Source: a phage
DNA length: 64,000 nt
Sequence record: NC_101842.1
Strand: one strand, 5' to 3'
The notes beneath the pieces are model-generated. The model did not search any database. It saw only the letters and a program-made list of their open reading frames with translations, and had not been told where the DNA came from. Position numbers and translations under genes: made by a program. This document shows positions 1 to 55,537 of this stretch, piece after piece (the stretch's first letter is position 1; each line of letters begins with the position of its first letter).

Positions 1-2
1 TG

Positions 3-500: not shown

Positions 501-510
501 GGGGGGTTGT

Positions 511-891: not shown

Positions 892-899
892 TTTCTAAG

Positions 900-930
900 A
901 CCTCCCCCGCTTCGGCGGGGATTTTCTATT
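900..930 (+). terminator. rho-independent terminator
   Basis: GC stem CCCCGC-TTCG-GCGGGG followed by ATTTTCTATTT. Confidence 0.6.
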
Positions 931-940
931 TGGAGTCATT

Positions 941-3420: not shown

Positions 3421-3430
3421 GGAGACCAAG

Positions 3431-4636: not shown

Positions 4637-6006
4637 TGGAAAAAGGGCAGTATGATGTAGGCACAGATGCTGCCCTCGTTGCAATCATGAGCGGTGAGAA
4701 TGTCTTCGTTTCAGGACCCGCAGGTTGTGGGAAGACGTACCTCATCAACATGATCCAGTCAATGTATGGAGACTCTTGCATAACGGTTGCCCCGACAGGG
4801 GTAGCCGCTTTAAACGTTAATGGAGCAACAGCACACCGAACCTTCGATCTTGCAGCAGGTGTGAGCATGGAGTCAGACTGGACCGCAATAAGGGCAAAAA
4901 CAGCAAAGCCTTTGAAGAGCAAGGCATTTACCATCCTAATTATCGATGAAATCTCTATGATCCGTGCTGATAAGTTTATAGAGATGGATAGGAAACTCCG
5001 CTTCCTTCGAAAAAATGACAAACCTTTCGGAGGCATACAGGTCATATTGTTTGGCGATTTTTACCAGGCACCTCCTGTTGTCTCTTCTATGGAGAAGGAA
5101 GCCTACTTCAACTTCTACCATACGGACTTGTGTTGCTATACCGAATCTTGGAAAGAGCTTGACCTCCACAACATAGCCCTAATAGATCAGTTCCGACAGG
5201 AGTCTATTCGATTTGCTACAATGCTCAACTGTGTTCGTGAGGGTCGTCGTATAAAAGAGGTTGTAGCAGAACTTAATGCTCGCTGTTACAAAGGAGGTGT
5301 ACCAACAGACGCTCTCACAATTTGCGCCACCAACAAACAAGCAGAGGAAGTGAACAGAAGGTTCTATGATGCCATCAACGCCCCAGAGAAGGTATACACT
5401 GGTGAAATGAAGGGTAAGTTTCCCTCCACCTTGCCAGTTGAGCAGGAGATGAAGTTGAAAATTGGCATGAAAGTTATGATAACCGCCAACGATGTTGACC
5501 CGACGCACAAAGTACCTTATTATGTTAACGGAACACGTGCCACAATTGTTAAATTTAAGAACAAGGCGGTGGTGGTGGAGCTTGAAGATGGAACACAGGT
5601 TGACATAGAACAAAGGTTGTGGGAGAATAACGAGTATAAGCCATCTCAAAGATACAACATTGCAGAAAGGAAGATGGAGAAGTTTATAGAGAGGGTAGTG
5701 ATTGGATCATACAAGCAACTCCCTCTGAAATCTGGGTACGCCGTAACATCTCATAAAAGTCAAGGACTTACGCTAGATTGTTACAACCTGGACCTTGGAA
5801 AGAACGGAGCTTTCTCTCCTGGGATGACGTATGTTGCTTTGAGTCGAGTTAAGACAATACAAGGAATAAACTTGTTGCGTCCACTAAGAGAAGTTGACAT
5901 TATTGTTGACCCGCGAGTAGTAGAGTTTTACAATACAACCTTTCCTGACTTAGACAAAATTGTCAGGAAAGATTTTGAAACCAGAGCAGAAGAGGGGGAC
6001 GTATGA
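4636..6006 (+). CDS. SF1B DNA helicase, Dda/RecD/Pif1-like
   Basis: Walker A GPAGCGKT; motifs IIDEISM, VTSHKSQGLT, TYVALSRV; start overlaps upstream stop (TAATG); GAGGAGG RBS. Confidence 0.85.
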   Translation: MEKGQYDVGTDAALVAIMSGENVFVSGPAGCGKTYLINMIQSMYGDSCITVAPTGVAALNVNGATAHRTFDLAAGVSMESDWTAIRAKTAKPLKSKAFTILIIDEISMIRADKFIEMDRKLRFLRKNDKPFGGIQVILFGDFYQAPPVVSSMEKEAYFNFYHTDLCCYTESWKELDLHNIALIDQFRQESIRFATMLNCVREGRRIKEVVAELNARCYKGGVPTDALTICATNKQAEEVNRRFYDAINAPEKVYTGEMKGKFPSTLPVEQEMKLKIGMKVMITANDVDPTHKVPYYVNGTRATIVKFKNKAVVVELEDGTQVDIEQRLWENNEYKPSQRYNIAERKMEKFIERVVIGSYKQLPLKSGYAVTSHKSQGLTLDCYNLDLGKNGAFSPGMTYVALSRVKTIQGINLLRPLREVDIIVDPRVVEFYNTTFPDLDKIVRKDFETRAEEGDV

Positions 6007-6344
6007 GTTTGTGGAGAAATATAGTTAACTACGTGTGTGGCAATCCAACTCCTGAAGAGAAGGATGTTGTGATTCACGATTTTACTAAAAGATCTCGTGA
6101 AAAAGATCTACTGCTGACAAAGGTGACTGATAAAGATCCTGCAGTAGGGGACTGGGCAGGTTTTGCGTTTACATCGGACAAATACACCTTTAACAAAGGT
6201 GACTATCTTGTTGTGGATTTTAACGAAGACATCGAGGGTGCTGAACCTTACTATCAGACCCTTATTGTTGCAGGGTGTGTCGATCTCTCTGCAGGCATGC
6301 ACAGTTTGATTCTTTTTGAGCTTGACTGTGAAGACCTTCAGTAG
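6003..6344 (+). CDS. hypothetical protein
   Basis: ATGA overlap with helicase stop; GGGGGA RBS; no recognisable domain. Confidence 0.6.
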   Translation: MSLWRNIVNYVCGNPTPEEKDVVIHDFTKRSREKDLLLTKVTDKDPAVGDWAGFAFTSDKYTFNKGDYLVVDFNEDIEGAEPYYQTLIVAGCVDLSAGMHSLILFELDCEDLQ

Positions 6345-6405
6345 TAAGATGTGAGTCTAAAGGGGAGGCACTCCTCCCCACAAAAACTAAGGAGAGCACC
6401 AAACT

Positions 6406-7731
6406 ATGAGCAAAACCAAATTAGAACTCACCTGGATAGGTAAAAACGAGCGCAAAAAGCTAGAGCCGCACACTTTGTTAGAAGATTCGAGCAAGTCTTA
6501 CCACAGCCAGAAAGTGACCGAAAACGATATTTTTGATAATAAGCTGATTTTTGGAGATAACTTATTAGCATTGAAGGCGCTAGAGCAAGAGTATGCAGGC
6601 AAAGTGAAGTGTGTTTACATAGACCCACCATTCAATACCGGAAGGGCTTTTGAGCACTACGATGATAGTCTGGAGCATTCCATTTGGCTGGGCTTAATGA
6701 GGGATAGGTTAGAAATAATTCGTAATCTTCTGAGTGATGATGGGGTAATATTCGTTCACTTAGATGGTTGCGAAATGGCGTATTTAAAAGTTTTGATGGA
6801 CGAGATTTTTGGTCGTGCAAATCAGTTAAATACCATATCGATGACCACAAATTCCCCTTCGGGATTTAAGGCAACAGGAGCCACAGTTTTCTCCACAGCA
6901 AACTTTTTGCTTGTATATGCAAAAGATCGCAACCAGAAACCGCTTAACAAAATCTATATAACTAAAGGGTATGATACAGGATATAACAAATACCTATTAA
7001 ACCCGGATGACCATTATAAAAATTGGACGTGGTGCGGTATTGCCGATGCGTTTGCAAAGGCCAATGGCTATAAAGATGCAAAAGAAGCTAAGAAAAAACT
7101 GCCTGACACATTCGATGATGAATTAGCACAATTCGCAATTGATAATGCAGAACGTGTATTTCAATCTGTTGCAATTGGTGGTGGCGCTAAAATAAAGAGA
7201 AAAGAAACTATCGAGAAGTCAAAGAAAGATAGGGATAAGGTTTATGTACATCCGAATGAGGATGTTGAAGGATTTTATATCGCAAATGGTAGGCAAATGG
7301 TCTTTTACTCCAACAGGCTTTTGGAAATTGACGGTGAGATGCAACCTGCGGAACTAATAACTGATGTTTGGACAGACATTAGTTGGAATGGAATAGCAAA
7401 TGAAGGCGGCGTTAGTTTCAAAAATGGAAAAAAACCAGAAGCGCTTTTGAAGCGGATTCTCGAAATGTGTACGCGAGAAGGTGATTTGGTATTGGATTCA
7501 TTCGGCGGTTCGGGAACTACTGCTGCTGTAGCCCACAAGATGAAAAGACGTTGGATCTTGATCGAACTGGGTGATCATTGTCATACCCATATTATCCCTC
7601 GCTTGCAAAAAGTGATTGATGGTGAAGATCAAGGTGGTATTTCTAAGTCTGCAAGCTGGCAAGGTGGCGGTGGCTTCCGCTATTACAAACTTACCCAGAC
7701 CTTAATTACGAAAGATAATTCTGATCAATAA
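6406..7731 (+). CDS. DNA methyltransferase, N6-adenine/N4-cytosine family (DPPF motif), orphan
   Basis: Catalytic motif IV VYIDPPFNTG and AdoMet motif DSFGGSGTT; AAGGAG RBS; no restriction endonuclease partner seen. Confidence 0.8.
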   Translation: MSKTKLELTWIGKNERKKLEPHTLLEDSSKSYHSQKVTENDIFDNKLIFGDNLLALKALEQEYAGKVKCVYIDPPFNTGRAFEHYDDSLEHSIWLGLMRDRLEIIRNLLSDDGVIFVHLDGCEMAYLKVLMDEIFGRANQLNTISMTTNSPSGFKATGATVFSTANFLLVYAKDRNQKPLNKIYITKGYDTGYNKYLLNPDDHYKNWTWCGIADAFAKANGYKDAKEAKKKLPDTFDDELAQFAIDNAERVFQSVAIGGGAKIKRKETIEKSKKDRDKVYVHPNEDVEGFYIANGRQMVFYSNRLLEIDGEMQPAELITDVWTDISWNGIANEGGVSFKNGKKPEALLKRILEMCTREGDLVLDSFGGSGTTAAVAHKMKRRWILIELGDHCHTHIIPRLQKVIDGEDQGGISKSASWQGGGGFRYYKLTQTLITKDNSDQ

Positions 7732-7744
7732 AGAGTACAATCAA

Positions 7745-8050
7745 ATGATGAAACGTTATAAACCATACACTTTTGAAATCGATTTCGAACTTGACGATAT
7801 GTTTACTGTGGAAGCTCAGGCAGTTGTTCAGTTGCCAGATCCGGAGTGCCGGGATTCTGATGTTGACTGTTACGGATTTAGACAAATCACCGATGTGCAT
7901 GTTTACCACAACGGTGAAGAGGTGGACTTCCACCAACTGCCAAACGATATGCGCCACTCAATTTACAAACGTGCAGCCCGTGAACTAGAGTCCTATCTGG
8001 ATGCAGCGACGACAGCAGCTGCATTTGCTGAAGAAGTGGGAGGTTTCTGA
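7745..8050 (+). CDS. hypothetical protein
   Basis: ORF in compact same-strand array; weak RBS. Confidence 0.5.
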   Translation: MMKRYKPYTFEIDFELDDMFTVEAQAVVQLPDPECRDSDVDCYGFRQITDVHVYHNGEEVDFHQLPNDMRHSIYKRAARELESYLDAATTAAAFAEEVGGF

Positions 8051-8445
8051 TGATTACAGGTGTGAAGATTATCCAATACCACTTAACCAAATTGGAAGAT
8101 GCTGAAAAAGAGCTTGCAGAAGTTCTGAATAGTGGATATACTTTGCTATCATGCGCCTGCTCAGACACATACGCTGTGTGGACACTTATCCGGAAGGAAG
8201 AGCCTGCGGGGATCTTGGTGCCAAACCCTAAGATCATTAGTGAGATGGATGACTACGCTCAGGACGGCCTGCCAGAAGGCTGGGAAGTATGGGAAGGTGG
8301 TGAAAACCCTGCACCAGGTAAGTGGGTAAAATACAAACTGCGTAGTGGCGCACAGTACGCTGACTATTCTGATGACCTGGACTGGAGTCATTCTTCACCA
8401 GAATCATCTGCAAGTTCCTATGATATCATAGCTTTTAAGGAATAA
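8050..8445 (+). CDS. hypothetical protein
   Basis: GGAGG RBS; start overlaps upstream stop. Confidence 0.6.
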   Translation: MITGVKIIQYHLTKLEDAEKELAEVLNSGYTLLSCACSDTYAVWTLIRKEEPAGILVPNPKIISEMDDYAQDGLPEGWEVWEGGENPAPGKWVKYKLRSGAQYADYSDDLDWSHSSPESSASSYDIIAFKE

Positions 8446-8457
8446 GGAGAAGGTGGT

Positions 8458-8940
8458 ATGTCAGATTTTATGTGGAAAGTTGGTTATTCCTCTCCTGAAA
8501 TGTGTAAGGCCTGTTTTGTGAAAATAGGTCGCGAGGATATCGACAAAGTGATTCTTAAGTTTCGTGATGTGGCTGTAATCGGCAACCGAGTGCTTAAGCA
8601 CTTAAAGAATCTGAAGCTCACCAAAAAGAAGTTCTTTGGACTTTTCGAAGAGAAGGTTGATGCTTGGACCCATTGCATTCAGGAAGCTAAATCTCACTAC
8701 AGTGCTATCATTACCCCAGAACGGGTAGCCAAGATGGAAGGATTCATCAACAGCACAGAGTTTGAGTGCCTGAAAGCTGCACTTGATAGTTATCCGAAAT
8801 GCCTCAAGCACTTGGACAAGTATGTAGAAAAGGATGGGGAAATGTATCTAACCCTGGACGCATATTATGAGATGCAAGAAATTTTAAATTTAGATTTGAC
8901 ATTGGTATCCACCGAGTATACAATAGGTATCCGGGTTTAA
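8458..8940 (+). CDS. hypothetical protein
   Basis: AAGGAGAAGG RBS; followed by terminator. Confidence 0.6.
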   Translation: MSDFMWKVGYSSPEMCKACFVKIGREDIDKVILKFRDVAVIGNRVLKHLKNLKLTKKKFFGLFEEKVDAWTHCIQEAKSHYSAIITPERVAKMEGFINSTEFECLKAALDSYPKCLKHLDKYVEKDGEMYLTLDAYYEMQEILNLDLTLVSTEYTIGIRV

Positions 8941-8945
8941 CACTA

Positions 8946-8974
8946 GGCCCTGCCCGAAAGGGTGGGGCTTTTTG
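8946..8974 (+). terminator. rho-independent terminator (repeated element, copy 1)
   Basis: Stem CCCTGCCC-GAAA-GGGTGGGG (with G-U pairs) then CTTTTTG; same 20-nt hairpin recurs at ~19083. Confidence 0.6.
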
Positions 8975-8991
8975 CATTAGGAGACAGCAAA

Positions 8992-9756
8992 TTGAAATTC
9001 ATCTACAAAGAACACTACCACAAAGGTGTTGTGTGGAGTCTATTTGACGGGTCTGGTGGTGCAGTTATTGACTGGGCAAAAGCTGGGTACCTGTGCCTGT
9101 GCTTTAATGCAGAAGGTGCTGACCACGGCAGTTATGCAGAGGTGATAACCGATCATCCTAACATTCACTATGTGGATTATTGGATTGACCCATGGTTCCC
9201 TCAGGAAACTTTTTGCATGTATCCAGCTCCAGACTTTATTCTTGCATTTCCTCCGTGCACGCATTTAGCGGTATCAGGTGCTGCACATTTTAAGAAAAAG
9301 CTGGCTAAGGATCCTTTGATCCAAATTAATGCTGTAAAGGATGCTCGGGTTGCGGAAGAGCTGGGAGAGATTTACGATTGCCCGTGGCATGTAGAGAATC
9401 CTGTTGGTGTTATGTCCACACTGTGGCGCAAACCTGATTACCGTTTTCATCCTTCTGACTATGGCGGGTATTTACCGGAGGATGATGTAAACCCCTGGTT
9501 TCCTGAATTTATAGCTCCACGTGATGCCTATCCAAAAATAACTTGCGGCTGGATAGGTAATGGATTTATAATCCCGGCCACAAAACCTGTCCCGCAAATA
9601 GTTGACGCGGTTAGCGGGTATTCCATGCAACACGCCAAGCTGGGTGGGAAGAGTGCAAGAACGAAGATGATCCGAAGCCTCACACCACGTGGCTGGGCAA
9701 AAGCTGTATTCTTAGCAAACGAGCCTGTAGTAAGGAGCAGAATTAATGGGAAGTAA
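8992..9756 (+). CDS. putative DNA (cytosine-5) methyltransferase-like protein
   Basis: C5-MTase-like motifs: I SLFDGSGG, IV FPPCTHLAVSG (Pro-Cys), VI HVENPVG; probable TTG start at ~8992 after AGGAGA; assignment tentative. Confidence 0.5.
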   Translation: MKFIYKEHYHKGVVWSLFDGSGGAVIDWAKAGYLCLCFNAEGADHGSYAEVITDHPNIHYVDYWIDPWFPQETFCMYPAPDFILAFPPCTHLAVSGAAHFKKKLAKDPLIQINAVKDARVAEELGEIYDCPWHVENPVGVMSTLWRKPDYRFHPSDYGGYLPEDDVNPWFPEFIAPRDAYPKITCGWIGNGFIIPATKPVPQIVDAVSGYSMQHAKLGGKSARTKMIRSLTPRGWAKAVFLANEPVVRSRINGK

Positions 9757-11824
9757 ATTTATGGCATCTGCATACAACCGTTTCGGTGAGCCAAACCCGA
9801 AAGCAACTAAGTATAAAAGTGGGGGAAGTGTGAAACGAGACTATCGTGATGAAAAAGAAGTTGAAACTGTAGAGACTGTTTTAGAAAATACTAAAATTGT
9901 CCCTGTCCCACAACAAAATATCGGTCTGATGGCTGCACAATATTTTGGTGTGCGATCAGCATTGTCCCAAGAAGACGGTGTGACAGTCACTGCAACATAT
10001 TTCCCATATTACGACCGCTACGGAAATCTGTCCGGTTTCAAAAAGCGCGACTGGACGATTCCTAAAGAGCAAAGGGGCCATTTCTCCGTTGTTGGCATCG
10101 TAAAGGCTAACTCCCAGATGTTTGGTCAAAAGCTGTGTGCATCTTCCAACAACCGTAAGCAGATTAACGTTTGCGAGGGAGAAGGTGATGTTATTGCAGC
10201 ATGGCAGGCTGCATATCAGATACAAGTAAAAGGGATTCTCACCAACGCTAAAGCCCCGGCAAAGGTGAAGCAGTGGGCTAAAGAGGTACAGGACGGGATC
10301 GATGCAGTTATCAACGGTGGTGATCTGGCAGGAAAACCCTGCCTACCTTTTGTTGGAATTAACTGCGGATGTGCAAACGCAGTAGATACTTTTGCAAACA
10401 ATGAGAAGTTTATCCGTAGCTATGGAACAGTTGTGCTGGCAATGGATAACGATGCAGCTAACGAGGTAGAGAAGCAAAAACACGTCATTAAAGGTGTTGA
10501 GGCTACGCACAATATCGCAGCATTTTTGATGGCTGATAACGTTTACCACGTAGAGTACCCTGGTGAAGTAAACGATCCTGACGGTGTAAAAGATATCCGT
10601 GACATGCTGAAGGCTAAAAAGCTGGAAGATATTGTAAACATGTTCCGGCATCCTGTTAAGTATGTACCGGATGCTGTATCGGATTTAGAAGACTTCTCTA
10701 TCGAATCTTTGCGGAAAAAGACTTCCAACGGGGTAGATATCAGCGCAGAGTTCCCAAAACTGCAAAAAATGCTAAAAGGCTTGCACAAAGGGACACTCGT
10801 AATGCTTACAGGTCCATCAGGAGGCGGTAAAACAACTGTAGCTAAAAAACTGGAACACTGTATTGCAAGATACCTAATGGACCCGACATGTCCAAAGGCT
10901 GATGATTACGAAGAGGATGATCGTCTATGCATGATTCATCTTGAGGAGGACCCAGAGGAAGCAATTAACTCCTTGTATGCAAACCAGTTAGGGTTTGATG
11001 TTAAAGAGTTTGTTGAAGATCCTAGCCAGTTTTTAACTGATCAAGAACACGCAGAGATTCACCAATCATGGGCAAAAGCTGGAAAAATCAAAGTGTTCAA
11101 ACATTTCGGGTCTATTCCAGTGGACGAGTTGATTACCAAGCTTAAGCAAATGGTTTGCCTGTACCATTGTCGTTATATTGTGCTGGATCACCTGTCCATG
11201 GTAATTTCAGGGCTTAATGTTAAGGATGAGCGAAAAGAACTGGACATGGCTATGACCCAACTGGCTGCGTTTTGTAAGCAGTTTAACGTGTTTATCTTGG
11301 TGATCGCTCACCTCAAACGTACAGAGATTGTGCCCCCTAAGGACAAGGATGGTAACCCATTACCTTTCTGGTATCCTGTGCGAAAAGAGAATTTGCGAGG
11401 ATCGGCTGGGCTTGAACAGTTGAGTTGGGTAGTCATAGGTGTCGAGGCCGAAGAAATGGTGGATCGTTCTCGTGGACGTGTCCGTCTGGTAGGTCTTAAA
11501 AACCGTCCAGCAAAAACTTTAGGTATTGCTGACACTTTAGTTATGGATCCGCATACAGGTAAGTTCCATGATGCCAGTAATTGGTACTGGGACAAAGAAA
11601 TGCAGATGTTTACAGACGGAGAAGGTGGGGAGGTTGTTTGGAGACCTCAGGCTATGTTTGAGGATCAGGAGCATGCAGTTGTAGAAACACCTATGGGCAA
11701 GGTTGTGGCTGATAAGGTTGTAACACCCACTGTCAAGCCTATTGACACGCAGGAAGACCTCCAATACGATGATCCATCCTCTGATCCGGTCCCTGGTTTT
11801 GAGGATGATGAAACACCTTTTTAA
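9746..11824 (+). CDS. bifunctional DNA primase-helicase
   Basis: TOPRIM-like VCEGEGDVIAAW and MDNDAANE; Walker A GPSGGGKTT, Walker B IVLDHL; acidic C-terminal tail ...FEDDETPF; AAGGAG RBS. Confidence 0.8.
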   Translation: MGSKFMASAYNRFGEPNPKATKYKSGGSVKRDYRDEKEVETVETVLENTKIVPVPQQNIGLMAAQYFGVRSALSQEDGVTVTATYFPYYDRYGNLSGFKKRDWTIPKEQRGHFSVVGIVKANSQMFGQKLCASSNNRKQINVCEGEGDVIAAWQAAYQIQVKGILTNAKAPAKVKQWAKEVQDGIDAVINGGDLAGKPCLPFVGINCGCANAVDTFANNEKFIRSYGTVVLAMDNDAANEVEKQKHVIKGVEATHNIAAFLMADNVYHVEYPGEVNDPDGVKDIRDMLKAKKLEDIVNMFRHPVKYVPDAVSDLEDFSIESLRKKTSNGVDISAEFPKLQKMLKGLHKGTLVMLTGPSGGGKTTVAKKLEHCIARYLMDPTCPKADDYEEDDRLCMIHLEEDPEEAINSLYANQLGFDVKEFVEDPSQFLTDQEHAEIHQSWAKAGKIKVFKHFGSIPVDELITKLKQMVCLYHCRYIVLDHLSMVISGLNVKDERKELDMAMTQLAAFCKQFNVFILVIAHLKRTEIVPPKDKDGNPLPFWYPVRKENLRGSAGLEQLSWVVIGVEAEEMVDRSRGRVRLVGLKNRPAKTLGIADTLVMDPHTGKFHDASNWYWDKEMQMFTDGEGGEVVWRPQAMFEDQEHAVVETPMGKVVADKVVTPTVKPIDTQEDLQYDDPSSDPVPGFEDDETPF

Positions 11825-11882
11825 TGTTTAACAAAGAGTGGGAGGGGTAGTACAACCGCCTCCCCTTTAAGGAGAACTGTAT

Positions 11883-14660
11883 ATGAGCATGTGGTCGTTC
11901 GACTTTGAGTCATCCGGTTTGCTGGAAGATCCAGATCTTTATTATCACTGCGGCCTGTTTAAAGAGCTGAATAAGAACCGTTTTATGCTGTTCCTTCCTC
12001 TAAATGACCGCACACACTACTCCGAAGAGGATATAGAGAAGGCTAAGAACTTTATTCTGGCAAAGAAAACTCTTCATAAAGATTTTGAAGTTCGCATAGC
12101 AGATTTTTCGGAGTTGGAAGGTTGGCTTACAGGCAATTCCGACTGGTCACCAACAGCTTTGAACTGCCATAACTGCTACAGTTATGACTTTATGCTGATA
12201 GAAAGATTATCCGGTATTCATTTTGATATGTTCCGTGATCCTAAATGCATGGGGACTATCAACGACCACCAGGTTAACCTGTTTGATACGTTGGCGATGA
12301 GCAGAATCTTGTGGCCTGATCGCCCTTTACCAAAAGGTTGTCCGGACTCTGTATTCAACCCGGTTACTAAGAAAATGCAGCCTGTTGGTCCTCACGGCCT
12401 TATGGCATGGGGCTACGCCCTTGGTAACCAGAAAGTTCAAATTGATGACTGGCGCGATCTTCCGTTGTGGAAGTATGTGGATCGTGTATTCGAGGACGTT
12501 ATCATCCAGGAGCTGCTCTGGAAAGAGCTGGTAGCGGAATCAAAAGGTGTATTCTACGGCAAATCTGACATGCAGAACTTTATGTACGATCCAGCCAAAG
12601 AGAAGCCGAAAGGGTTCAAGAAAATCACCTGGAAGAACGCATTACGCCGAGGCATGCTGCAGCACTTCCTGATGGAGCTGCAGGCCCGTCAGGGTGTGTA
12701 TTTCGACATAGATGGGGCTATTGCTTTACGTGACCGTTGCGATGCGTGGATGAAAGAGATCGCTGATCGTGTTGAACCTCAACTTCCTTTAAAAGAGTTG
12801 TCAATGTCTCAGCGGCCCAAGTTCCCTGAAAAGCCGTTTAACCAAGATGGGACAATCTCCAATAATGGTTGGAAATGGTTAAAAGATAAGCTTGGCTATC
12901 CTGTAGACATGAGCGCTTTAGAATTCAAAGCCCCGCCTAAGCGAGCATTTACCTCCACAGGAGATGTCAGCAAGATGGGGATAAAATGGTGCGAAGAGAT
13001 GGGCTGCAAAGACCCCGACAAGATGGCTGATTTCTTGAGAGGTTATATTAAGGGCACCTCCACACCACAACCTTTACCTAAAGAGCTGATGGATCAGGCA
13101 ATAAGTGATCTGCAGCAGAAGCGAATGCCTGACTGCAAGATACCTATGAAAATCAGCAATCAGGACGACATTAAGCGATACCTGATCAGTGCTGGTTGGC
13201 TTCCGACAATGTGGAGAACTAAGGATGTAACTAAGGACAGCAAGAAGAAAGCTCTACCTGATGCAGATGTTGATGCACGAGTATATGCATACATGGACGA
13301 GCTTTTAGAGTCAGAGTATTGTGACCTAATTATCAACTTCTGGAACAAAACTGATGCTAAGTTTCAGACAACAGTGCACAAGTTCCGAAGCTTTCCTAAC
13401 TCCGAAAGGATTAAAAAGGAAGTGTTCGGGAAAATACGCAGAAAAGCCAGGGCACTTATTACTTCTCCGCAACTGAAAGATACGTTTGGACACCTATGTC
13501 CGAATCTTGAAAAATTGAACGGAGAGATGGCTAAAGATATCGTCTTGTGGTTATCATTGCGAAACCGCAGATCGGTCCTTGATCCAATCAAGGAGGATAA
13601 GGTTGATACTGGTCTTCTTAATCACCCACGTTTGAAGATTGACCATAAGCTTCCTGCTAAAAGCTCTGGATTAACAAACACTTCCCGACAGAAACACAGT
13701 ATTTGTGCAAACATGCCTAAACCATCTCCTAAAGTGGTTATGGGTAAAGAGATGCGTAGCTTGTGGGGTGTTCCTCCTGGATACTTTGAGATCGGTATTG
13801 ACGGGTCCAACTTAGAGCAGCTTATCGGGGCTTGGGGTGCCTTTGAGTTCGACAACGGCTTGTACTATGATGTTGTAAGTAACGGGGACGCACACCAAAA
13901 CAATGCTGAGGCATATACAAAAGTAGCAGGCAGAGAGGTGTCTCGTAACGACGGTAAACCTATCACGTATGGGGTTATGTACGGGGCACAAAAAGATAAA
14001 GTTGCAGATATGCTGGATATCTCCCCAGAGTTGGGGCAAAGGGTGATCGATGCACTTTGGGATGCCAACCCCGGTCTTAAGGGGCGCAAAGAGGATCTGG
14101 AGAAATTCTGGGAAGCAACAGGTAAGAAGTTTATCTACTCTTTTGATGGTCATGCTATCTGGACCCGATCTAAACACTCTTTACTTAATGCATACCAACA
14201 AAATGGTGGTGCATCGCTGTGTGACTTAGTTGGGATACTCATGCACCACCAAATGGTGAAGCGTGGGTGGTACGATGAAGGTGTCCGTCGTATTATCTAT
14301 TACCATGACGAATATCAGCTTCAAGTGCCTGACACACCGAAGTATAAGACTGTGTACACCTTCGACACAATTGAAGAACTGGAAGCATTTAAGGCAGAGC
14401 AGGAAGCCAAACTTCATGTGTTCGACGGTCATAAGTACAAAAAGGCACGCAAGGATGAGGACGGAAACGAAGTGGTTGACAGAGACGGAAACACGGTGTA
14501 CGATCCTATCCTGAACGATGACGGAAAGCTTGAACTTATCTGGAGCCCTGTGGGTGAAATGGTGGTGCATTGCTTCTGGCAAGCTTCTAAAATGATGGGA
14601 GTCCCGTTCCAGATCACAGGTGAATACTTGTGTGGTCGTAACTGGGGTGATTGTCACTAA
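11883..14660 (+). CDS. DNA polymerase, family A, with N-terminal 3'-5' exonuclease motifs
   Basis: Exo I FDFESSG; pol motif A-like EIGIDGSNLEQL; motif B R...K...YGVMYG; motif C YYHDEY. Confidence 0.85.
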   Translation: MSMWSFDFESSGLLEDPDLYYHCGLFKELNKNRFMLFLPLNDRTHYSEEDIEKAKNFILAKKTLHKDFEVRIADFSELEGWLTGNSDWSPTALNCHNCYSYDFMLIERLSGIHFDMFRDPKCMGTINDHQVNLFDTLAMSRILWPDRPLPKGCPDSVFNPVTKKMQPVGPHGLMAWGYALGNQKVQIDDWRDLPLWKYVDRVFEDVIIQELLWKELVAESKGVFYGKSDMQNFMYDPAKEKPKGFKKITWKNALRRGMLQHFLMELQARQGVYFDIDGAIALRDRCDAWMKEIADRVEPQLPLKELSMSQRPKFPEKPFNQDGTISNNGWKWLKDKLGYPVDMSALEFKAPPKRAFTSTGDVSKMGIKWCEEMGCKDPDKMADFLRGYIKGTSTPQPLPKELMDQAISDLQQKRMPDCKIPMKISNQDDIKRYLISAGWLPTMWRTKDVTKDSKKKALPDADVDARVYAYMDELLESEYCDLIINFWNKTDAKFQTTVHKFRSFPNSERIKKEVFGKIRRKARALITSPQLKDTFGHLCPNLEKLNGEMAKDIVLWLSLRNRRSVLDPIKEDKVDTGLLNHPRLKIDHKLPAKSSGLTNTSRQKHSICANMPKPSPKVVMGKEMRSLWGVPPGYFEIGIDGSNLEQLIGAWGAFEFDNGLYYDVVSNGDAHQNNAEAYTKVAGREVSRNDGKPITYGVMYGAQKDKVADMLDISPELGQRVIDALWDANPGLKGRKEDLEKFWEATGKKFIYSFDGHAIWTRSKHSLLNAYQQNGGASLCDLVGILMHHQMVKRGWYDEGVRRIIYYHDEYQLQVPDTPKYKTVYTFDTIEELEAFKAEQEAKLHVFDGHKYKKARKDEDGNEVVDRDGNTVYDPILNDDGKLELIWSPVGEMVVHCFWQASKMMGVPFQITGEYLCGRNWGDCH

Positions 14661-14709
14661 TGTAAACTATCAGCACAGGGAGGTGCTGTTGAGCAAAGAG
14701 GAGACTTTT

Positions 14710-14994
14710 ATGGTAGTAGAGCCAACAAAAACATTTACATCCATGACCATTCCTGTTATTATGCAGGTGGAGTGTGTTCAGGTATCTCAAGTGTGGCCTG
14801 GCACCAAAATCCCAACAGGGCCTGATTTCTTTCAGGTTGGGAAAGTGTACAATGTCTGGAAGGCACCAGATTGTTACCCTTTCATTAAAGATGACCGTGG
14901 GATGCTGTGGTATCTTGGAAATGACTTGACACTGCACCTTGGGAATGCTATTATTGCAGTATTCAGACTTAACAAGAAGGAGACCGATCAATGA
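14710..14994 (+). CDS. hypothetical protein (tandem paralog family A, member 1)
   Basis: Internal ATG with AGAGGAG RBS; shares KDDRGMLWYLGND-type block with the next two ORFs. Confidence 0.55.
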   Translation: MVVEPTKTFTSMTIPVIMQVECVQVSQVWPGTKIPTGPDFFQVGKVYNVWKAPDCYPFIKDDRGMLWYLGNDLTLHLGNAIIAVFRLNKKETDQ

Positions 14995-15218
14995 CGACTT
15001 TGGTTAAAGCTACCTTTGTAGAAGAAAAGATGACAGACCTGTCATTCTTTAAAGAAGGAAAGACCTACGAGGTTTATTACGATAAAGCTCGTGCAAACAA
15101 AATGATTAAAGACGAGGAAGGGGTTGCCTGGTATATCTCTCACCTGGCAAACGGTGAGTATCATATCTACGGAACCACTTTGCTTGCCAAGTTTGTAGTT
15201 GTTGAAGAGGACCTATGA
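14991..15218 (+). CDS. hypothetical protein (paralog family A, member 2)
   Basis: ATGA overlap; block KDEEGVAWYISHLANG. Confidence 0.6.
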   Translation: MTTLVKATFVEEKMTDLSFFKEGKTYEVYYDKARANKMIKDEEGVAWYISHLANGEYHIYGTTLLAKFVVVEEDL

Positions 15219-15409
15219 AAGTAAAGTATCTTGCTGAAGGTATGAATAGGTATTTTACCCTTGGGGAAGAATATTGGCCCTTTACAAACAACGGTGATGT
15301 CTACGTGAAAGATAATTTCGGCACGCCGTGGTTTCTGCACTCTAATGGGCTGGGATACTCCATTTACTGCGGTGCAGTGAACAACACAACTCTTGCAGAG
15401 TTCGTTTAG
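15215..15409 (+). CDS. hypothetical protein (paralog family A, member 3)
   Basis: ATGA overlap; block KDNFGTPWFLHSNGLG. Confidence 0.6.
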   Translation: MKVKYLAEGMNRYFTLGEEYWPFTNNGDVYVKDNFGTPWFLHSNGLGYSIYCGAVNNTTLAEFV

Positions 15410-15419
15410 AGGAGGTAGG

Positions 15420-15791
15420 ATGTTAGTAAAAGGTACCCACACAGTCAAACAACGTATTGAAGTTGAGATTGATGATTGTGAGCTGAAGCATATTTTACGG
15501 TCATGCTCCAACGTTTTGCTCCTTAGTATTCTTCAGGAGCGAGCGGAGAACGAGTTCTTAAATGCATTGGCAGGCCGTCCCGGTGACTTCTGTGTGCGTA
15601 AGCGTGGTGACAACAAGTCATGGTTGTGGGAAATCGATGCCGACTGGGATTACCACAAAAATGAAGGTATAGATGAGCCTATTCGTGAACTGACTGACAA
15701 AGAGATTCAGATGTACAATGAAGTTTGTCATTGGGCAACACGCCAACAAATTTACCTAGACCCTGTGTGGCTGATTGAAAATAGCCATTGA
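15420..15791 (+). CDS. hypothetical protein
   Basis: ATG at 15420 after GAGGAGG RBS; track ORF 15393-15791 trimmed. Confidence 0.55.
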   Translation: MLVKGTHTVKQRIEVEIDDCELKHILRSCSNVLLLSILQERAENEFLNALAGRPGDFCVRKRGDNKSWLWEIDADWDYHKNEGIDEPIRELTDKEIQMYNEVCHWATRQQIYLDPVWLIENSH

Positions 15792-15816
15792 CAAGAAGTA
15801 AGATTAGATATAAGAT
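15788..15816 (+). promoter_or_regulatory. sigma70-like promoter
   Basis: TTGACA, 17-nt spacer, TAAGAT, upstream of the ORF at 15868. Confidence 0.45.
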
Positions 15817-15867
15817 GCTTCGCACAAACAGAGTGTTGATTTTTAAATAACTAAGGAGACTGCTAAG

Positions 15868-16122
15868 ATGAAAATTACTTTGAAGTCAGAATGCGTTGCA
15901 AATGACCGAGCTTTTAAAGATTGCACAGTCGGTGCAATTTATGAAGCAGAGTTTTGTGAGAACCCTCTGGTAAAAGCCCTCCTGGAAGAAGGGGCCCCTT
16001 TATCACAAGAAGAGATCGATGAGCTGGAAAACTCAGCACAGTGCCTTACCTTTAAAGATGATGAAGGAGACTCTGTATGGTGCACTGTTAATGAAGTAGT
16101 TTTTGTAAAACCTGAACATTAA
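15868..16122 (+). CDS. hypothetical protein (paralog family B, member 1)
   Basis: AAGGAG RBS; blocks DRAFKDCTVGAIYEAE and KDDEGDSVWCTV shared with the next ORF. Confidence 0.65.
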   Translation: MKITLKSECVANDRAFKDCTVGAIYEAEFCENPLVKALLEEGAPLSQEEIDELENSAQCLTFKDDEGDSVWCTVNEVVFVKPEH

Positions 16123-16125
16123 TAC

Positions 16126-16154
16126 TTGACAACAGTGATGGGGCCTAATATAAT
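16126..16154 (+). promoter_or_regulatory. sigma70 consensus promoter
   Basis: TTGACA, 17-nt spacer, TATAAT; lies inside the 5' extension of track ORF 16126-16446. Confidence 0.55.
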
Positions 16155-16185
16155 GGCCCTATCAAAACGAAAGGGGACCACAGCA

Positions 16186-16446
16186 ATGACCAAACAATAC
16201 CAACGAATTAAAGCCAAGGTTAAGCCAGACTATCTGGAGAAAGACTCTGCTTTTCGGGACTGCACAGCCGACAAAGTTTACACAGGGGCTGTCCTGTTGA
16301 ACGATAAACTTGAAGTAGATGTGCTGGGTAAAGAGGCCGTTATCGAGGATGACAACGGTGACTGTGTTTTCTGCACCACACGGGAGCTAGAAGTCTTAGA
16401 ATACTTCGGTGAAATCTTCAACTCTTTAGACGACGAGGAAGCGTGA
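16186..16446 (+). CDS. hypothetical protein (paralog family B, member 2)
   Basis: ATG downstream of the promoter; blocks DSAFRDCTADKVYTGA and EDDNGDCVFCTT. Confidence 0.6.
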   Translation: MTKQYQRIKAKVKPDYLEKDSAFRDCTADKVYTGAVLLNDKLEVDVLGKEAVIEDDNGDCVFCTTRELEVLEYFGEIFNSLDDEEA

Positions 16447-16835
16447 TGAAAAATATTTGGGATATTGATATCTTTGAAGCCTCTAAGCTTGACGGTGCTG
16501 ATGGAGTTATTATGGTGTCTGATGGCAAGGCAACACTAACTTCCGGAGATATCATCTATGCCTTGGACGAGCTGGCGCTTCTGAAATCTACCGGTAACAC
16601 TTTAGAGGAGCGTCTTCAAGGCTTCGCCTTCAAAGAAGGTACAAATACCGCCATGATGTGCACCACACGGACAGTTCAGGTTGGTAACGGTGTCTATATG
16701 ATCATTGCGGTGTGTCATAAATTCAGCAACGTCAATAAAGATGATGCTGACGCTGTCAACGATGTGGTTGTTCTCTTCGTAGGTGACGCTATGGCAGACC
16801 TGATGAATGCAGGAGAAGCGGCAAATGAAGACTGA
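16443..16835 (+). CDS. hypothetical protein
   Basis: ATGA overlap with upstream stop. Confidence 0.6.
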   Translation: MMKNIWDIDIFEASKLDGADGVIMVSDGKATLTSGDIIYALDELALLKSTGNTLEERLQGFAFKEGTNTAMMCTTRTVQVGNGVYMIIAVCHKFSNVNKDDADAVNDVVVLFVGDAMADLMNAGEAANED

Positions 16836-17127
16836 AAACATTACCCCAGCAGGGTTCTTAAAAGTATACCGTGAACTGCTATATACTACAGAGGACAGTG
16901 TTCTAGAGTATCCAGAATATCTTTTGCTGTATAAGTATCTGCAGGAGGCTGGTGAAAATCTGCCAGTTAGTGCAGAAGGTGGTCCGAACTGGATATACAG
17001 CGCATGGAGAAAGGTTGACATTCTCCCAGATCCAGGTAAAGATATGGTAGTTTGGCAGCTTATCAACAACATTGGGATTCCAATCTTTGATGAAGCTGTT
17101 AAAATCTATTTTGAACTTGACGATTAA
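16825..17127 (+). CDS. hypothetical protein
   Basis: ATG at 16825 after AGGAG; track ORF 16807-17127 trimmed. Confidence 0.5.
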   Translation: MKTENITPAGFLKVYRELLYTTEDSVLEYPEYLLLYKYLQEAGENLPVSAEGGPNWIYSAWRKVDILPDPGKDMVVWQLINNIGIPIFDEAVKIYFELDD

Positions 17128-17144
17128 TATCAGGAGACCTTAAG

Positions 17145-17390
17145 ATGACTGAAGTAGTTGCTCGCGCAGGACAGAAAGTACGTTGTGTTGAAGTAGGTTT
17201 TGGTGGCAAAGGGTGTCAAAACTTGACTCAAGGTAAGGAATACGCTGTTATTTCTGGTGGTGGCGACGAAAGTATTGTGTTCGAGGGCCACATCCTGGAT
17301 GCTGAAAACTTTGAAATCTTTGACGACGATGGGGATCCGATCACCTGCCTGCTGGACGGGAATTGGGGAACTTTCGAAGTGATTGGCTAA
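17145..17390 (+). CDS. hypothetical protein (DDDGD motif, related to paralog families A/B)
   Basis: CAGGAGA RBS; block FDDDGDPITCLLDGNWG. Confidence 0.6.
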   Translation: MTEVVARAGQKVRCVEVGFGGKGCQNLTQGKEYAVISGGGDESIVFEGHILDAENFEIFDDDGDPITCLLDGNWGTFEVIG

Positions 17391-17473
17391 CAAATACCTA
17401 TTGTAATTTGCAGAAGGGGATGCTAAAATAGTGTCTCCTTCTATGTTGTTCAAATAAAATCGGAGATTCCATA

Positions 17474-17839
17474 ATGGAACAAATGAACGATCAAGCGTCG
17501 GTTGCGATGAACGAGCAAGAACAACCTCAAGAATTTTTCTTAGGGTTAAGTAAAGATCAAGTGTCTCTTCTGCTAGTGCTTTCTTCTTTCATGGGAAGAC
17601 TTCAGGAGCTCACACAACAACCAGAGGCTGAACAATTATTTCAAGCTCTGCGTGAAGAAGAAAAATATCGTCGTTTGGACTATGCCTTAGGTTGGGTAGC
17701 TCAACAACGAGATATGCTGATGGCCCTCTCTGGGACCACAAGTTTTGCAATGGGGCTGTTGGCTCAAGTTCAGGACAAATTAATTCAAGCAGGGTTTGCA
17801 CACACGGCAAACACTAACGAAGAACAAGGAGACAAATAA
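17474..17839 (+). CDS. hypothetical protein
   Basis: GGAGA RBS; Q/E-rich. Confidence 0.6.
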   Translation: MEQMNDQASVAMNEQEQPQEFFLGLSKDQVSLLLVLSSFMGRLQELTQQPEAEQLFQALREEEKYRRLDYALGWVAQQRDMLMALSGTTSFAMGLLAQVQDKLIQAGFAHTANTNEEQGDK

Positions 17840-19065
17840 TGAGCGTTATTCAACAATTCGCTAACCCGATGAATCCGCGTGAAACTGTTTTACTGGCTCA
17901 CGGCATGATTAAACGTGTCAGCATCAAGCCTATCAAAGGTGCTGATCCTACAACAGGTATTAAAACCACTGTGTGGCAAGGTAAGAAAATTGAATCCAGC
18001 CACACCATCTCTTTACTGATTTCTGAACTGGATTCCTCTGATAACCTGCTTCAAAGTGGTGAAGAAGTTTGGATCAGCATGGGTGATAAGCTGCTTAAAC
18101 CTGGTCATCAAGACTCTGTCTCTGTTAAAATTGATGACAAGTGGGAAACCGTAACGCCGGGATGGATCGTAAATATCCCTTTGAAGGCAAACGAGCATAA
18201 CGGTAAGACCTATTACAAAGGCTCACTGGCTAAGATGGTCAAGCTGGGTGCAGGAGAGGCTCCAGCAGCGACTCAGCAGCAAAAACAGCAACAAGGTGCA
18301 CAATCACAAGGCCAGAAGCAGAAACCTCAGCAGAATGCCAATCAGGACGTTTTACGCATCTATGGCGATGTGACTCAGATTGTTGGCAACGTGGTTACTG
18401 TTAATGACCACAAGATTGGCGAAGGTGCTATGGTTGTAACTGATGAGCAGCTTAAAGACCTGGTGGTAGGTGGTCGTGTTGCAGCCATTGTTGACAAAGA
18501 CACCGGAAACATTATCAGTGGTTTCAAAGCCTATCCCCCTAAGGCAGAGAACGGCACTCAAGGCTCCGGTGGCAAGCGTAAATCCTCTTACGACCCTATC
18601 GGTGTGGAAACGGGGCATAGCATCAATGCGTTGCAGATCATCCTGGATCGCGGGTTTAAGGTAGACGACCCACTGGGCGTGGCTAAAACACTGCACGTAG
18701 TCACCATTGAGCTTAAGAAAGAGTATGCTCAAGCCACCAACCGAACTGAAGATGAAGTAGGTGCCAGTGTCGGTAATGCGGTGTTGAACGCTTGTCGCCG
18801 TATTGACAAGAAAACGAAAGTTGATGATTTTGCAGCGGCAATTACTGCAGAAGCAAAAGATGTCTTGACTAATCTGGCTGAACCGTTGTACGATTGGATC
18901 AAGAACGGTGCTGGGTCAACTGACTATCAAGAACCCCAGGCTGCCAAACAGGAAGCAGCTCCACAGCAAAACACTGTAGACGCTCCTCCTGTAAATGATG
19001 AGGAAGATGACCCAATGGATCAGAATCCAGCACAGTATACCTTTGATGATGACATCCCTTTTTAA
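17839..19065 (+). CDS. putative ssDNA-binding protein with SSB-like acidic C-terminal tip
   Basis: Ends ...FDDDIPF, identical in the last residues to E. coli SSB; Q-rich low-complexity linker; sits in the replication module; AAGGAGA RBS. Confidence 0.55.
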   Translation: MSVIQQFANPMNPRETVLLAHGMIKRVSIKPIKGADPTTGIKTTVWQGKKIESSHTISLLISELDSSDNLLQSGEEVWISMGDKLLKPGHQDSVSVKIDDKWETVTPGWIVNIPLKANEHNGKTYYKGSLAKMVKLGAGEAPAATQQQKQQQGAQSQGQKQKPQQNANQDVLRIYGDVTQIVGNVVTVNDHKIGEGAMVVTDEQLKDLVVGGRVAAIVDKDTGNIISGFKAYPPKAENGTQGSGGKRKSSYDPIGVETGHSINALQIILDRGFKVDDPLGVAKTLHVVTIELKKEYAQATNRTEDEVGASVGNAVLNACRRIDKKTKVDDFAAAITAEAKDVLTNLAEPLYDWIKNGAGSTDYQEPQAAKQEAAPQQNTVDAPPVNDEEDDPMDQNPAQYTFDDDIPF

Positions 19066-19080
19066 CATCTAGTTAACATA

Positions 19081-19110
19081 GCCCTGCCCGAAAGGGTGGG
19101 GCATTTTTGT
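19081..19110 (+). terminator. rho-independent terminator (repeated element, copy 2)
   Basis: Same CCCTGCCC-GAAA-GGGTGGGG hairpin followed by CATTTTTG. Confidence 0.6.
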
Positions 19111-19127
19111 ATAAGGAGATCTGAAAA

Positions 19128-19544
19128 ATGACATTAGAAGATATCATTGTTAAGCCTGAGAACTATGACCAATACAACCTGTCAACTCAATCTGTAGACC
19201 TTGGATGCGCCACGGTCAGTGCGTGGCTGGTTAACGGAAAAGAGCTGGATAAATGCTTAGAAGCTCACATGTCTATTAACAAGTTTCTGGATGAAAATAC
19301 TCACTGGCTTGAGGGTGCAGGCGTATATGCTTCATGGTTGGATAGTATGGGATTCGACTACCAATCTGAAGAGGGGTGGTGGAGCTATTTAGCTATCTGT
19401 CCAGAGACGCTACAATGCTTCATGAAATATTCTGAAGATTTGGAGTACCGGGCGGTGGTTGATAGTGCTATTGCCCGTTATAGCCGTAAACCTTTTTCCC
19501 ACGACATTAAAACTGTGGAAGAATTTGTTGAAGTTTTCTGTTGA
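19128..19544 (+). CDS. hypothetical protein
   Basis: AAGGAGA RBS. Confidence 0.6.
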   Translation: MTLEDIIVKPENYDQYNLSTQSVDLGCATVSAWLVNGKELDKCLEAHMSINKFLDENTHWLEGAGVYASWLDSMGFDYQSEEGWWSYLAICPETLQCFMKYSEDLEYRAVVDSAIARYSRKPFSHDIKTVEEFVEVFC

Positions 19545-19640
19545 CACAGATTGAAAGGTGTGCAATTATAACTTCATAGAACGGGAGGACGTGATGAACG
19601 AAGAAAACTGGGATGTATAACTAACAGGAGGCCACTGCCC

Positions 19641-19838
19641 ATGATTTATCGAATCCGTGTAAGAGAAGATGCACCAGGCTGTTACTTTGACTGGCGTGGG
19701 TGGTGGTTTATCCACCCAATGGATGGACTCACAGATAGAATGCTGGATGCTGCCCTTTACACAGATACCGACATAGAATATAATCTCTATCTGAAGGACG
19801 GTATAGATAACGGCCTGTTTGAAGCAATTCCTGTGTAA
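19641..19838 (+). CDS. hypothetical protein
   Basis: CAGGAGG RBS. Confidence 0.55.
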   Translation: MIYRIRVREDAPGCYFDWRGWWFIHPMDGLTDRMLDAALYTDTDIEYNLYLKDGIDNGLFEAIPV

Positions 19839-19906
19839 GAGACTGTGATAGCTATGTTTTATGATCTTCCTGTAGCGCCACCACCTGTTGAACCAGGAGA
19901 ACTAAG

Positions 19907-20332
19907 ATGATCTATGAAATGCCAAAACTGATTCGTGACGATGCCCAAAACGCTCACACCATTATTATGGGCAAACGCATGGATATTATTTGTCATAAAG
20001 ATTTCTGGGAAGGAAGTTACTTCACAGAGTATTTTGGTAAACTGGACAATGGTCTGCTGATCCAGTTCTACACCGATGCGGAAAACAACATTCCCTGGGA
20101 GTTCGAAACTGAAGATGTCTATAAACTTTTCACCTTCCTCGGTATTAAGGTTAAGGCCAAGTTTGAAGAAGGTGAGTGCGACGATTGTGGATTTTATGAG
20201 GTAACAGATTTCTACCTTCCTAGCGGTAAGAACCTTTACTATGAAAGCCACTTCGGTAACTCCAATATGCCACAGTGCTGGACTGAGTTTTTTGAAATTG
20301 CGGAAGAGGAGCTGGCTTACCGTGATTATTGA
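19907..20332 (+). CDS. hypothetical protein
   Basis: CAGGAGA RBS; directly upstream of, and overlapping, the macro-domain gene. Confidence 0.6.
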   Translation: MIYEMPKLIRDDAQNAHTIIMGKRMDIICHKDFWEGSYFTEYFGKLDNGLLIQFYTDAENNIPWEFETEDVYKLFTFLGIKVKAKFEEGECDDCGFYEVTDFYLPSGKNLYYESHFGNSNMPQCWTEFFEIAEEELAYRDY

Positions 20333-55499: not shown

Positions 55500-55537
55500 T
55501 ATTCTACCTCTAAAATGGGGCCGAAGCCCCTTTAAAA

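Follow-up and report, generated by a model that had tools for sequence, protein, structure and literature searches.

What do two acidic, phenylalanine-ended tails do in the replication block of one phage, and are they copies of a single docking signal? The question is raised by the 64,000-nucleotide stretch of sequence record NC_101842.1 analyzed here in full (the window), in which a T7 gp4-like primase-helicase and a protein resembling SSB, the protein that binds single-stranded DNA, and here called SSB-like, both end in an acidic run closed by Pro-Phe (PF), the format of the C-terminal tip (SSB-Ct) of bacterial SSB. The source phage is a Vequintavirus (rV5-like myovirus); Escherichia phage nomo is 99.9% identical to it over positions 9746-19065, and at least 80% of this region is covered by 111 phage records. 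The reading favored here, to which we assign a probability of roughly 0.6, is that the region encodes a T7-style replisome in which a non-canonical SSB carries a true SSB-Ct tip, and the acidic PF tail of the helicase, one of the gp4 kind, is related to that tip but distinct from it.

The SSB-like protein and its C-terminal tip

The SSB-like open reading frame (ORF) ends in ...NPAQYTFDDDIPF (in a longer reading, ...AQYTFDDDIPF) and E. coli SSB (PDB 1eqq) in ...PPMDFDDDIPF, the last seven residues of the two being identical where the initial annotation of this locus had claimed six. When the profile of the SSB-like family was compared with E. coli SSB by hhalign, the tail alone aligned (last 14 residues, probability 94%), and the profile also matched the SSB tail of PDB 7f2n. 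The SSB-like proteins of P0052 and of phage ukendt carry EPPMDFDDDIPF, identical over 12 residues to the end of E. coli SSB. When 1.84 billion representatives clustered at 50% identity were searched with the family profile, 245 family matches were returned at E<=0.001, and the end xPF is found in 151 of 203 family sequences, the rest being mostly fragments or near-variants. Counted back from the final residue (position 0) in those 50%-identity representatives whose end is both acidic and aromatic, F occupies position 0 in 95% and W in 5%, position -1 is P in 95%, position -2 is I, L or V in 92%, and positions -3 to -5 are mostly D; neither P407 nor F408 varies across an alignment of 22 sequences with identities down to 29%. 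Partner binding by the SSB-Ct is set by IPF, the Asp residues and the proximal Phe, with IPF required and an Ile-to-Leu change tolerated (PMC10143822), which agrees with the I, L or V seen at -2 in the SSB-like family. The tail of the SSB-like protein is a genuine bacterial SSB-Ct motif.

Among the 362 stop-to-stop ORFs of at least 60 residues in the window, only the SSB-like and primase-helicase ORFs combine an acidic run with a PF end, and a further 483 ORFs, each with 50 residues or more, in nomo (1-20000 and 83000-132999) include no such case; this census, together with conservation of the ends in homologs, rules out a chance origin of the PF tails. One other ORF in the window has an acidic, aromatic end, namely NrdB (54411-55568, minus strand), the small subunit of ribonucleotide reductase, which terminates in ...DAEEEIWEF. 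Considered as a third SSB-type tail, its ...EEEIWEF end was set aside as unrelated, being the known, classic R2 tail by which the small subunit of the reductase docks on the large one. In Vibrio phage ICP1, the position of the SSB-like gene is held by ORF68 (L017 16882-18048, 388 residues, hypothetical), the body of which is unrelated in sequence; it ends in ...GIDLDDSIPF and is probably the SSB of ICP1, with the same tip.

The profile of phrog_4477, which carries no functional annotation, spans residues 1-408 of the SSB-like protein (E 2.5e-173), and the gene is annotated across records mostly as hypothetical and once as a putative SSB. Its structure was predicted with AlphaFold2 from a 22-sequence alignment (domain boundaries in Table 1). 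The initial annotation had described a two-domain SSB-like architecture with a Q-rich linker in front of the tail and had proposed OB-fold prediction as a check. The model does return an OB fold (OB1) and a second, small domain of OB topology (OB2), but the folded modules number three rather than two, the third being a four-helix bundle, and the Q-rich linker, with its 13 Q, lies between the OB domains instead of before the tail, where the segment is rich in D, A, Q and P. The predicted structure contains an OB fold of the SSB/PriB structural class, and OB1 is presumed to be the domain that binds single-stranded DNA (ssDNA). Foldseek matched OB2 over ~67 columns to IF-1 and to the OB domains of proteasome Rpt proteins (probability 0.99); this domain is missing from short-form relatives of ~275 residues, as seen from the alignment gap in P0052-P0056, and the form without it is the commonest in the family (87 of 115 full-length representatives). 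The four-helix bundle is the best-conserved folded part, with invariant G255, G259, H260, N263, K293 and G312, and probably serves oligomerisation. Beyond it, residues 363-408 fall below 50 in the predicted local distance difference test (pLDDT), residues 356-408 carry a net charge of -12, and the linker before the tip is free to vary in length and sequence among homologs.

A Pfam scan of the SSB-like protein returned no family, and neither PF00436, the bacterial SSB family, nor DUF2815 matched any of 109 family members. Foldseek of the model against the PDB gave nothing at E<=0.001 and no match of any kind for the helix bundle; its matches to DUF2815 proteins were weak ones only (BFVD, E 1.8e-2; PDB 4klk, E 8.6e-2). 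Against T7 gp2.5, the family profile reached a probability of 0.2% in hhalign, and phmmer found no match. Sequence homology of the SSB-like protein to canonical SSB or to gp2.5 was rejected, on 0 Pfam matches in 109 members and on hhalign alignments that show nothing beyond the tail. The family is without a sequence-level match to any Pfam family, and a single preprint is the only published description of it that was found. A second SSB was not found by phmmer with E. coli SSB and T7 gp2.5 (E<=1) in the window and in nomo 1-20000 and 83000-132999, a search that covered ~97% of the phage genome, with the last 4.7 kb of nomo outside the scan; no other SSB is annotated in the portions of the nomo record that were consulted.

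The preprint, dated 30 April 2026, concerns Bas52_0087 (QXV84166.1) of Escherichia phage RudolfGeigy (MZ501102.1 75981-77207), which is identical to the SSB-like protein at 404 of 408 residues and stands in the same gene order. Bas52_0087 was called SSB-like by Phold, its AlphaFold2 model shows a disordered C-terminus, a four-helix bundle and a pair of OB folds, of which the one corresponding to OB2 is named OB-fold-2, and its FDDDIPF end was equated by the authors with the C-tip of E. coli SSB (bioRxiv 10.64898/2026.04.29.721553). The protein is required for activation of DRT10, a reverse-transcriptase defence that is escaped by the substitutions D252V and Y351C and modulated by the dosage of SbcB (ExoI), and when expressed alone it leaves the host unharmed and does not trigger DRT10 (bioRxiv 10.64898/2026.04.29.721553). 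Both escape positions, D252 and Y351, are present in the SSB-like protein and fall within its helix bundle. The SSB half of the present account is thus already published, and the independent AlphaFold2 model described above agrees with it; the preprint covers neither the helicase tail nor how broad the family is, nor the short form without OB2, nor the endonuclease insertion by which the tip is masked.

The primase-helicase tail and its relation to known systems

The only strong PDB relatives of the primase-helicase are T7 gp4 chains (E 4e-16), with an alignment that stops near residue 610, and its profile matches comprise Pfam DnaB_C (1.9e-13) and AAA_25 (2.1e-15) as well as phrog_239 (primase/helicase) over residues 18-677. 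Its EGEGD and DNDxA motifs align to those of T7, with domain scores that are non-significant and without a match to Pfam Toprim. In the AlphaFold2 model, a disordered start (residues 1-38) is followed by a confidently folded, primase-like part (40-307), a linker (308-326) and the helicase (327 to ~635). No Cys occurs in residues 1-90 (9746-9860 region), and the N-terminal Cys4 zinc-binding domain of the gp4A type is therefore absent from this protein. The ICP1 homolog likewise has no zinc-binding domain, and helicases of the Phapecoctavirus type have CPRC and no acidic PF tail.

The reported end of the protein, ...GFEDDETPF, was borne out. A final F is present in 44 of 48 distinct helicase tails, and these have P at -1 (93%), E, T, S or C at -2 (84%) and D at -3 (65%); the -2 residue is hydrophobic in ~2% of tails. 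The end D-x-[E/T/S/C]-P-F is kept in helicase homologs down to ~42% identity, those of ICP1-type Vibrio phages included (the rV5-type helicase of ICP1 ends in ...DQDGDEPF), and the PF tail goes with the zinc-finger-less rV5/ICP1 clade of helicases. Obligatory pairing of the two tails is ruled out by Phapecoctavirus ukendt, in which the same module combines an SSB-like protein ending in EEPPMDFDDDIPF with a zinc-finger-bearing helicase ending in ...LPTDSNY, and by the metagenomic loci L014 and L015, which keep the SSB tip next to helicases that end in ...PEGSY and ...PNKDF. The two tails are not equivalent or interchangeable copies, because the -2 residue, I, L or V in 92% of SSB-like proteins against E, T, S or C in 84% of helicases, differs between them and IPF is the segment of the SSB-Ct reported to be required (PMC10143822).

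The closest precedent for such paired tails is found in T7, where gp2.5 ends in ...EEADEDGDF and gp4 in ...DWSNDTDF. The acidic tails of gp4 bind basic patches on gp5, and their removal lowers processivity (PMC8472574; PMC12593628), while the tail of gp2.5 anchors on the front basic patch of the polymerase (PMC12339929). The T7 replisome supplies the closest solved homologs of both the helicase and the polymerase of the source phage, its SSB and helicase tails are likewise disordered, acidic and Phe-ended, and the functional logic, with tails tethering the parts of a replisome, would be the same. The two systems differ in that T7 tails end D-F, whereas those described here end x-P-F in the bacterial SSB-Ct format, and in that the tails measure ~54 residues here and 17-26 in T7; in addition, the body of the SSB-like protein shows no sequence relationship to gp2.5 and includes additional domains, the helicase has no zinc-binding domain, and the front basic patch is not clearly conserved. 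The family A polymerase of the block, which at E<=1e-3 matches only T7 DNA polymerase among PDB sequences (E 7e-16), would be the protein on which the helicase tail docks; the front basic patch of T7 was sought on it and is not clearly conserved, the alignment being shortened at that point. The helicase tail resembles a new form of the tail known from the T7 helicase, and it is newly described here, the Bas52_0087 preprint making no mention of it.

With bacterial SSB (PF00436) the SSB-like protein shares the OB fold class and a disordered linker followed by the SSB-Ct octapeptide, in which 7 of 8 residues are identical; it differs in lacking PF00436 membership (0 of 109) and in having OB2 and the four-helix bundle between OB1 and the tail. 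Precedent for an SSB tip that is used on a phage-encoded rather than a host partner comes from the SSB of phage HK620, whose last six residues (NDYPPF, SSB-Ct-like) are needed to load Sak4 onto SSB-coated ssDNA (PMC5928155). HK620 SSB is, however, distantly homologous to canonical SSB and acts with an annealase, and no helicase tail takes part in the system.

A homing endonuclease at the tip codons, and the gene block

Several homologs of the SSB-like and helicase proteins run past PF into the residues APIGLQY..HAIYxL. This extension was considered as a functional add-on peptide and rejected, as it represents the 5' end of an endonuclease gene, the same letters encoding the ribosome-binding site, start and N-terminus of that gene in another frame. 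The gene is of the free-standing, EndoVII/HNH-like type (~650 bp; phrog_1035 or phrog_2340) and is inserted precisely at the junction of the last Phe codon with the stop codon, with its start codon 19 nt past the Phe codon, and the 15 added codons hold its ribosome-binding site and N-terminus. The full-length element is present in 32 phage records, including the prototype rV5, whose ORF214 ends in ...DFCDDIPFAPVGLQYGKSRIHAL, and Bas50 DrSchubert, whose gene encodes 423 residues; the SSB-like allele of the window is uninterrupted. A related element follows the TPF of a primase-helicase homolog. The occurrence of related elements in both genes may be due to the likeness of their 3' ends at the DNA level, which in the window read GATGATGACATCCCTTTTTAA and GATGATGAAACACCTTTTTAA.

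In the pockets that recognise the SSB-Ct, it is the free carboxylate of the final Phe that is read, and for this reason the insertion should weaken docking of the tip. Either the free C-terminal Phe is not essential for growth, or the 15-residue extension is tolerated or removed; the natural extension in rV5 and other phages argues against a strictly essential free tip. The insertion of an endonuclease after the final Phe codon, which buries the tip, is a new observation of the present analysis. In Bas51 WalterGehring (L009 1299-1877), a different putative homing endonuclease lies 9 nt past an unextended 408-residue SSB-like gene, and the spot downstream of the SSB-like gene is a recurrent insertion site.

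Block 9746-19065, in which the SSB-like gene comes last, would constitute a T7-style minimal replisome (Table 1), and the order helicase-polymerase-SSB-like is common to Vequintavirus, Phapecoctavirus, ICP1 and metagenomic relatives. Two near-identical, G+C-rich hairpins (GCCCTGCCCGAAAGGGTGGGGC, then a T run) flank the 10-kb block, and the one 3' of the SSB-like gene is kept in locus L003. The 121-residue ORF that precedes the SSB-like gene is labelled 'putative SSB' in JLBYU08 alone, a label for which support was not found here; in the distant relative L016, the ORF upstream of the SSB-like gene (9645-9986) has an N-terminus homologous to it. In the metagenomic relative L015, the stop of a 54-residue ORF (9837-10001; PF25708) overlaps the start of a short-form SSB-like gene, and this small ORF resembles T7 gp5.9, a RecBCD inhibitor.

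Many of the primase-helicase homologs P0209-P0211 and P0250-P0298 have 975-1025 residues with a query coverage of only ~80%, which suggests that they carry large insertions, inteins or similar. The DNA polymerase coding sequence of Bas52 (L011 3750-6803) is annotated as a join of two pieces, and the polymerase of JLBYU08 is split; the replication genes of the rV5-like group are hotspots for mobile elements. Some 16-21 records labelled 'Campylobacter phage' (MG0656xx), with C. jejuni as the host, share ~98% identity with Vequintaviruses of E. coli, and their host label looks doubtful.

Table 1. Features of the replication block (coordinates of the window unless a locus is named).
Feature	Position	Strand	Description
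Terminator-like hairpin	8945..8970	+	Upstream of the replication block; consensus scan only
Primase-helicase gene, 692 aa	9746..11824	+	T7 gp4-like SF4 helicase with putative TOPRIM-type primase domain
Disordered acidic C-terminal tail of helicase, residues 639-692 (~54)	11660..11821	+	pLDDT <50; net charge -12
Helicase tip FEDDETPF	11798..11821	+	ORF ends ...VPGFEDDETPF
Family A DNA polymerase, 925 aa	11883..14660	+	T7 gp5-like; phrog_17, phrog_8888, weak Pfam DNA_pol_A
121-aa ORF	17474..17839	+	phrog_7310; stop overlaps start codon of SSB-like gene
SSB-like gene, 408 aa	17839..19065	+	Ortholog of Bas52_0087 and rV5 ORF214; phrog_4477
OB fold 1, residues 1-139	17839..18255	+	Confident all-beta domain in AlphaFold2 model; isoelectric point (pI) 9.1
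Q-rich disordered linker, residues 140-169	18256..18345	+	13/30 Q; pLDDT 24-34
Small five-strand beta domain with OB topology (OB2), residues 170-236	18346..18546	+	Strand order b1-b2-b3-short helix-b4-b5
Four-helix bundle, residues 251-355	18589..18903	+	Helices 253-270, 278-299, 304-321, 328-355; pLDDT 77-95 (251-350)
Disordered acidic linker before tip, residues 356-400	18904..19038	+	Rich in D/A/Q/P
SSB-Ct-type tip TFDDDIPF	19039..19062	+	7/8 residues as in E. coli SSB-Ct octapeptide DFDDDIPF
Terminator-like hairpin	19081..19102	+	Directly after SSB-like gene; consensus scan only
Endonuclease insertion loci	L003 4225-4867; L018 (rV5 DQ832317) 1465-2088; L004 2945-3425		Matching window site 19062/19063

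Possible roles of the two tails

In the favored reading, the 408-residue SSB-like protein would be the replicative ssDNA-binding protein of the phage. On ssDNA, its acidic tail would be freed and its DFDDDIPF-type tip would dock in an SSB-Ct-recognising pocket, placing host SSB-interacting enzymes, and possibly phage enzymes, on the phage ssDNA; of these, ExoI/SbcB is the one with genetic support. On the helicase hexamer, six tails of ~54 residues, each with a net charge of -12 and a D-x-P-F end, would tether the polymerase, and perhaps the SSB, in the manner of the T7 gp4 tail. The specificity of the helicase tail probably overlaps that of the SSB tip without being the same, because its -2 residue is polar rather than I, L or V.

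Several observations weigh against this reading. The helicase PF tail is missing where the SSB tip stays, in Phapecoctavirus and in two metagenomic lineages, and the polymerase stretch aligned with the front basic patch of T7, KWKRRWIK, is shortened to GKKFIY. In rV5 and some 30 other records, 15 residues are added after IPF, which thereby becomes internal, and the phages are viable. Both DRT10 escape mutations sit in the helix bundle and not in the tip. Finally, what is shown comprises the sequences with their conservation, homologies, folds and disorder; ssDNA binding and every binding partner are inferred, the preprint providing a genetic link to SbcB.

The initial annotation, which took both tails to be SSB-tip-like and suggested that they recruit host partners or help to assemble the replisome, holds in part. 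The SSB-Ct motif of the SSB-like protein, OB2 and a published ortholog with a genetic link to ExoI/SbcB speak for it; the equivalence of the tails did not survive, the helicase tail being polar at -2 and specific to one clade. That interpretation needs modifying because the tails are non-equivalent, the helicase tail is clade-specific, the T7 precedent went unnamed and the tip is masked in rV5.

An alternative that we regard as unlikely, although it fares best among the rivals, is a pure hijack of the host, with both tails acting as SSB-Ct mimics that dock host SSB-interacting proteins and so connect the phage fork straight to the host SSB interactome, or that titrate nucleases such as ExoI off phage DNA, and with the polymerase not a target. 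The helicase tail shares the terminal P-F, the acidic run and the proximal Phe that such mimicry calls for, but its -2 residue is polar in 84% and hydrophobic in ~2% of cases, whereas IPF is required (PMC10143822). Identity of the tip to host SSB, over 7 residues here and 12 in P0052 and ukendt, goes far beyond the generic acidity of T7, the genetic link to SbcB/ExoI points to a host partner, and the polymerase does not clearly keep the basic patch of T7, yet rV5 tolerates a natural extension of the tip, and expression of Bas52_0087 by itself is harmless to the host and leaves DRT10 untriggered, which argues against strong titration of essential host partners.

A further proposal, and quite an unlikely one, is that the helicase tail is a second, tuned SSB-Ct mimic, present six times per hexamer, that links the helicase to a subset of the host SSB interactome. 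Were it true, host primase DnaG, for example, or the clamp loader's chi-psi arm would be recruited to a helicase whose primase has lost its zinc-binding domain, the SSB tip would serve another subset, such as ExoI, and the endonuclease insertion would yield natural tip-masked alleles that alter both replication wiring and visibility to DRT10 and similar defences.

Intramolecular regulation, in which the tails are acidic DNA mimics that bend back onto the basic OB fold of the SSB or the surface by which the helicase binds DNA and so adjust the affinity for ssDNA, with PF as a hydrophobic anchor of the self-interaction and no dedicated external partner, is improbable. The conservation pattern is that of pocket docking, P(-1) and F(0) being conserved at 93-100% while the acidic residues vary in number and position, and the consensus of the family matches the SSB-Ct octapeptide of bacteria over its whole length. 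Homing endonucleases usually pick sites under strong constraint, and the family found here targets exactly these tip codons. Charge would suit a self-interaction, with a pI of 9.1 for OB1 and a net charge of -12 on each tail, and that rV5 tolerates 15 added residues is in keeping with a role that is mostly electrostatic; competition between tail and ssDNA is, moreover, established for T7 gp2.5 and E. coli SSB (PMC12339929; PMC5928155).

Least probable of all is that the SSB-like protein is a host-takeover or counter-defence factor binding ssDNA ends or host nucleases, with replication relying on host SSB, since its action as the DRT10 trigger, the gp5.9-like RecBCD-inhibitor homolog directly upstream in L015 and the lack of sequence homology to known SSB families are opposed by a last-gene position in the helicase-polymerase module that is kept across distant lineages, by DRT10 escape mutants that were all missense and not null (n=2), by an OB fold of the SSB/PriB class, and by phage SSBs that are known to trigger other reverse-transcriptase-based defences.

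As novelties, the helicase tail and the endonuclease that targets the tip are modest, each varying a theme already known. For a T7-style replisome with a true SSB-Ct tip on its SSB and a distinct PF tail on its helicase, the extended alleles (rV5, Bas50, EmilHeitz, MaxBurger) and the free-tip alleles (Bas48, Bas52, nomo and the source phage) are natural mutants for the role of the free tip. The SSB-like protein is a documented trigger of DRT10, and the partners of its tip bear on how DRT10 senses infection. The helicase tail suggests that many rV5- and ICP1-like phages run a T7-type replisome wired by the bacterial SSB-Ct docking code, which would be a testable route for a phage fork to borrow host enzymes.

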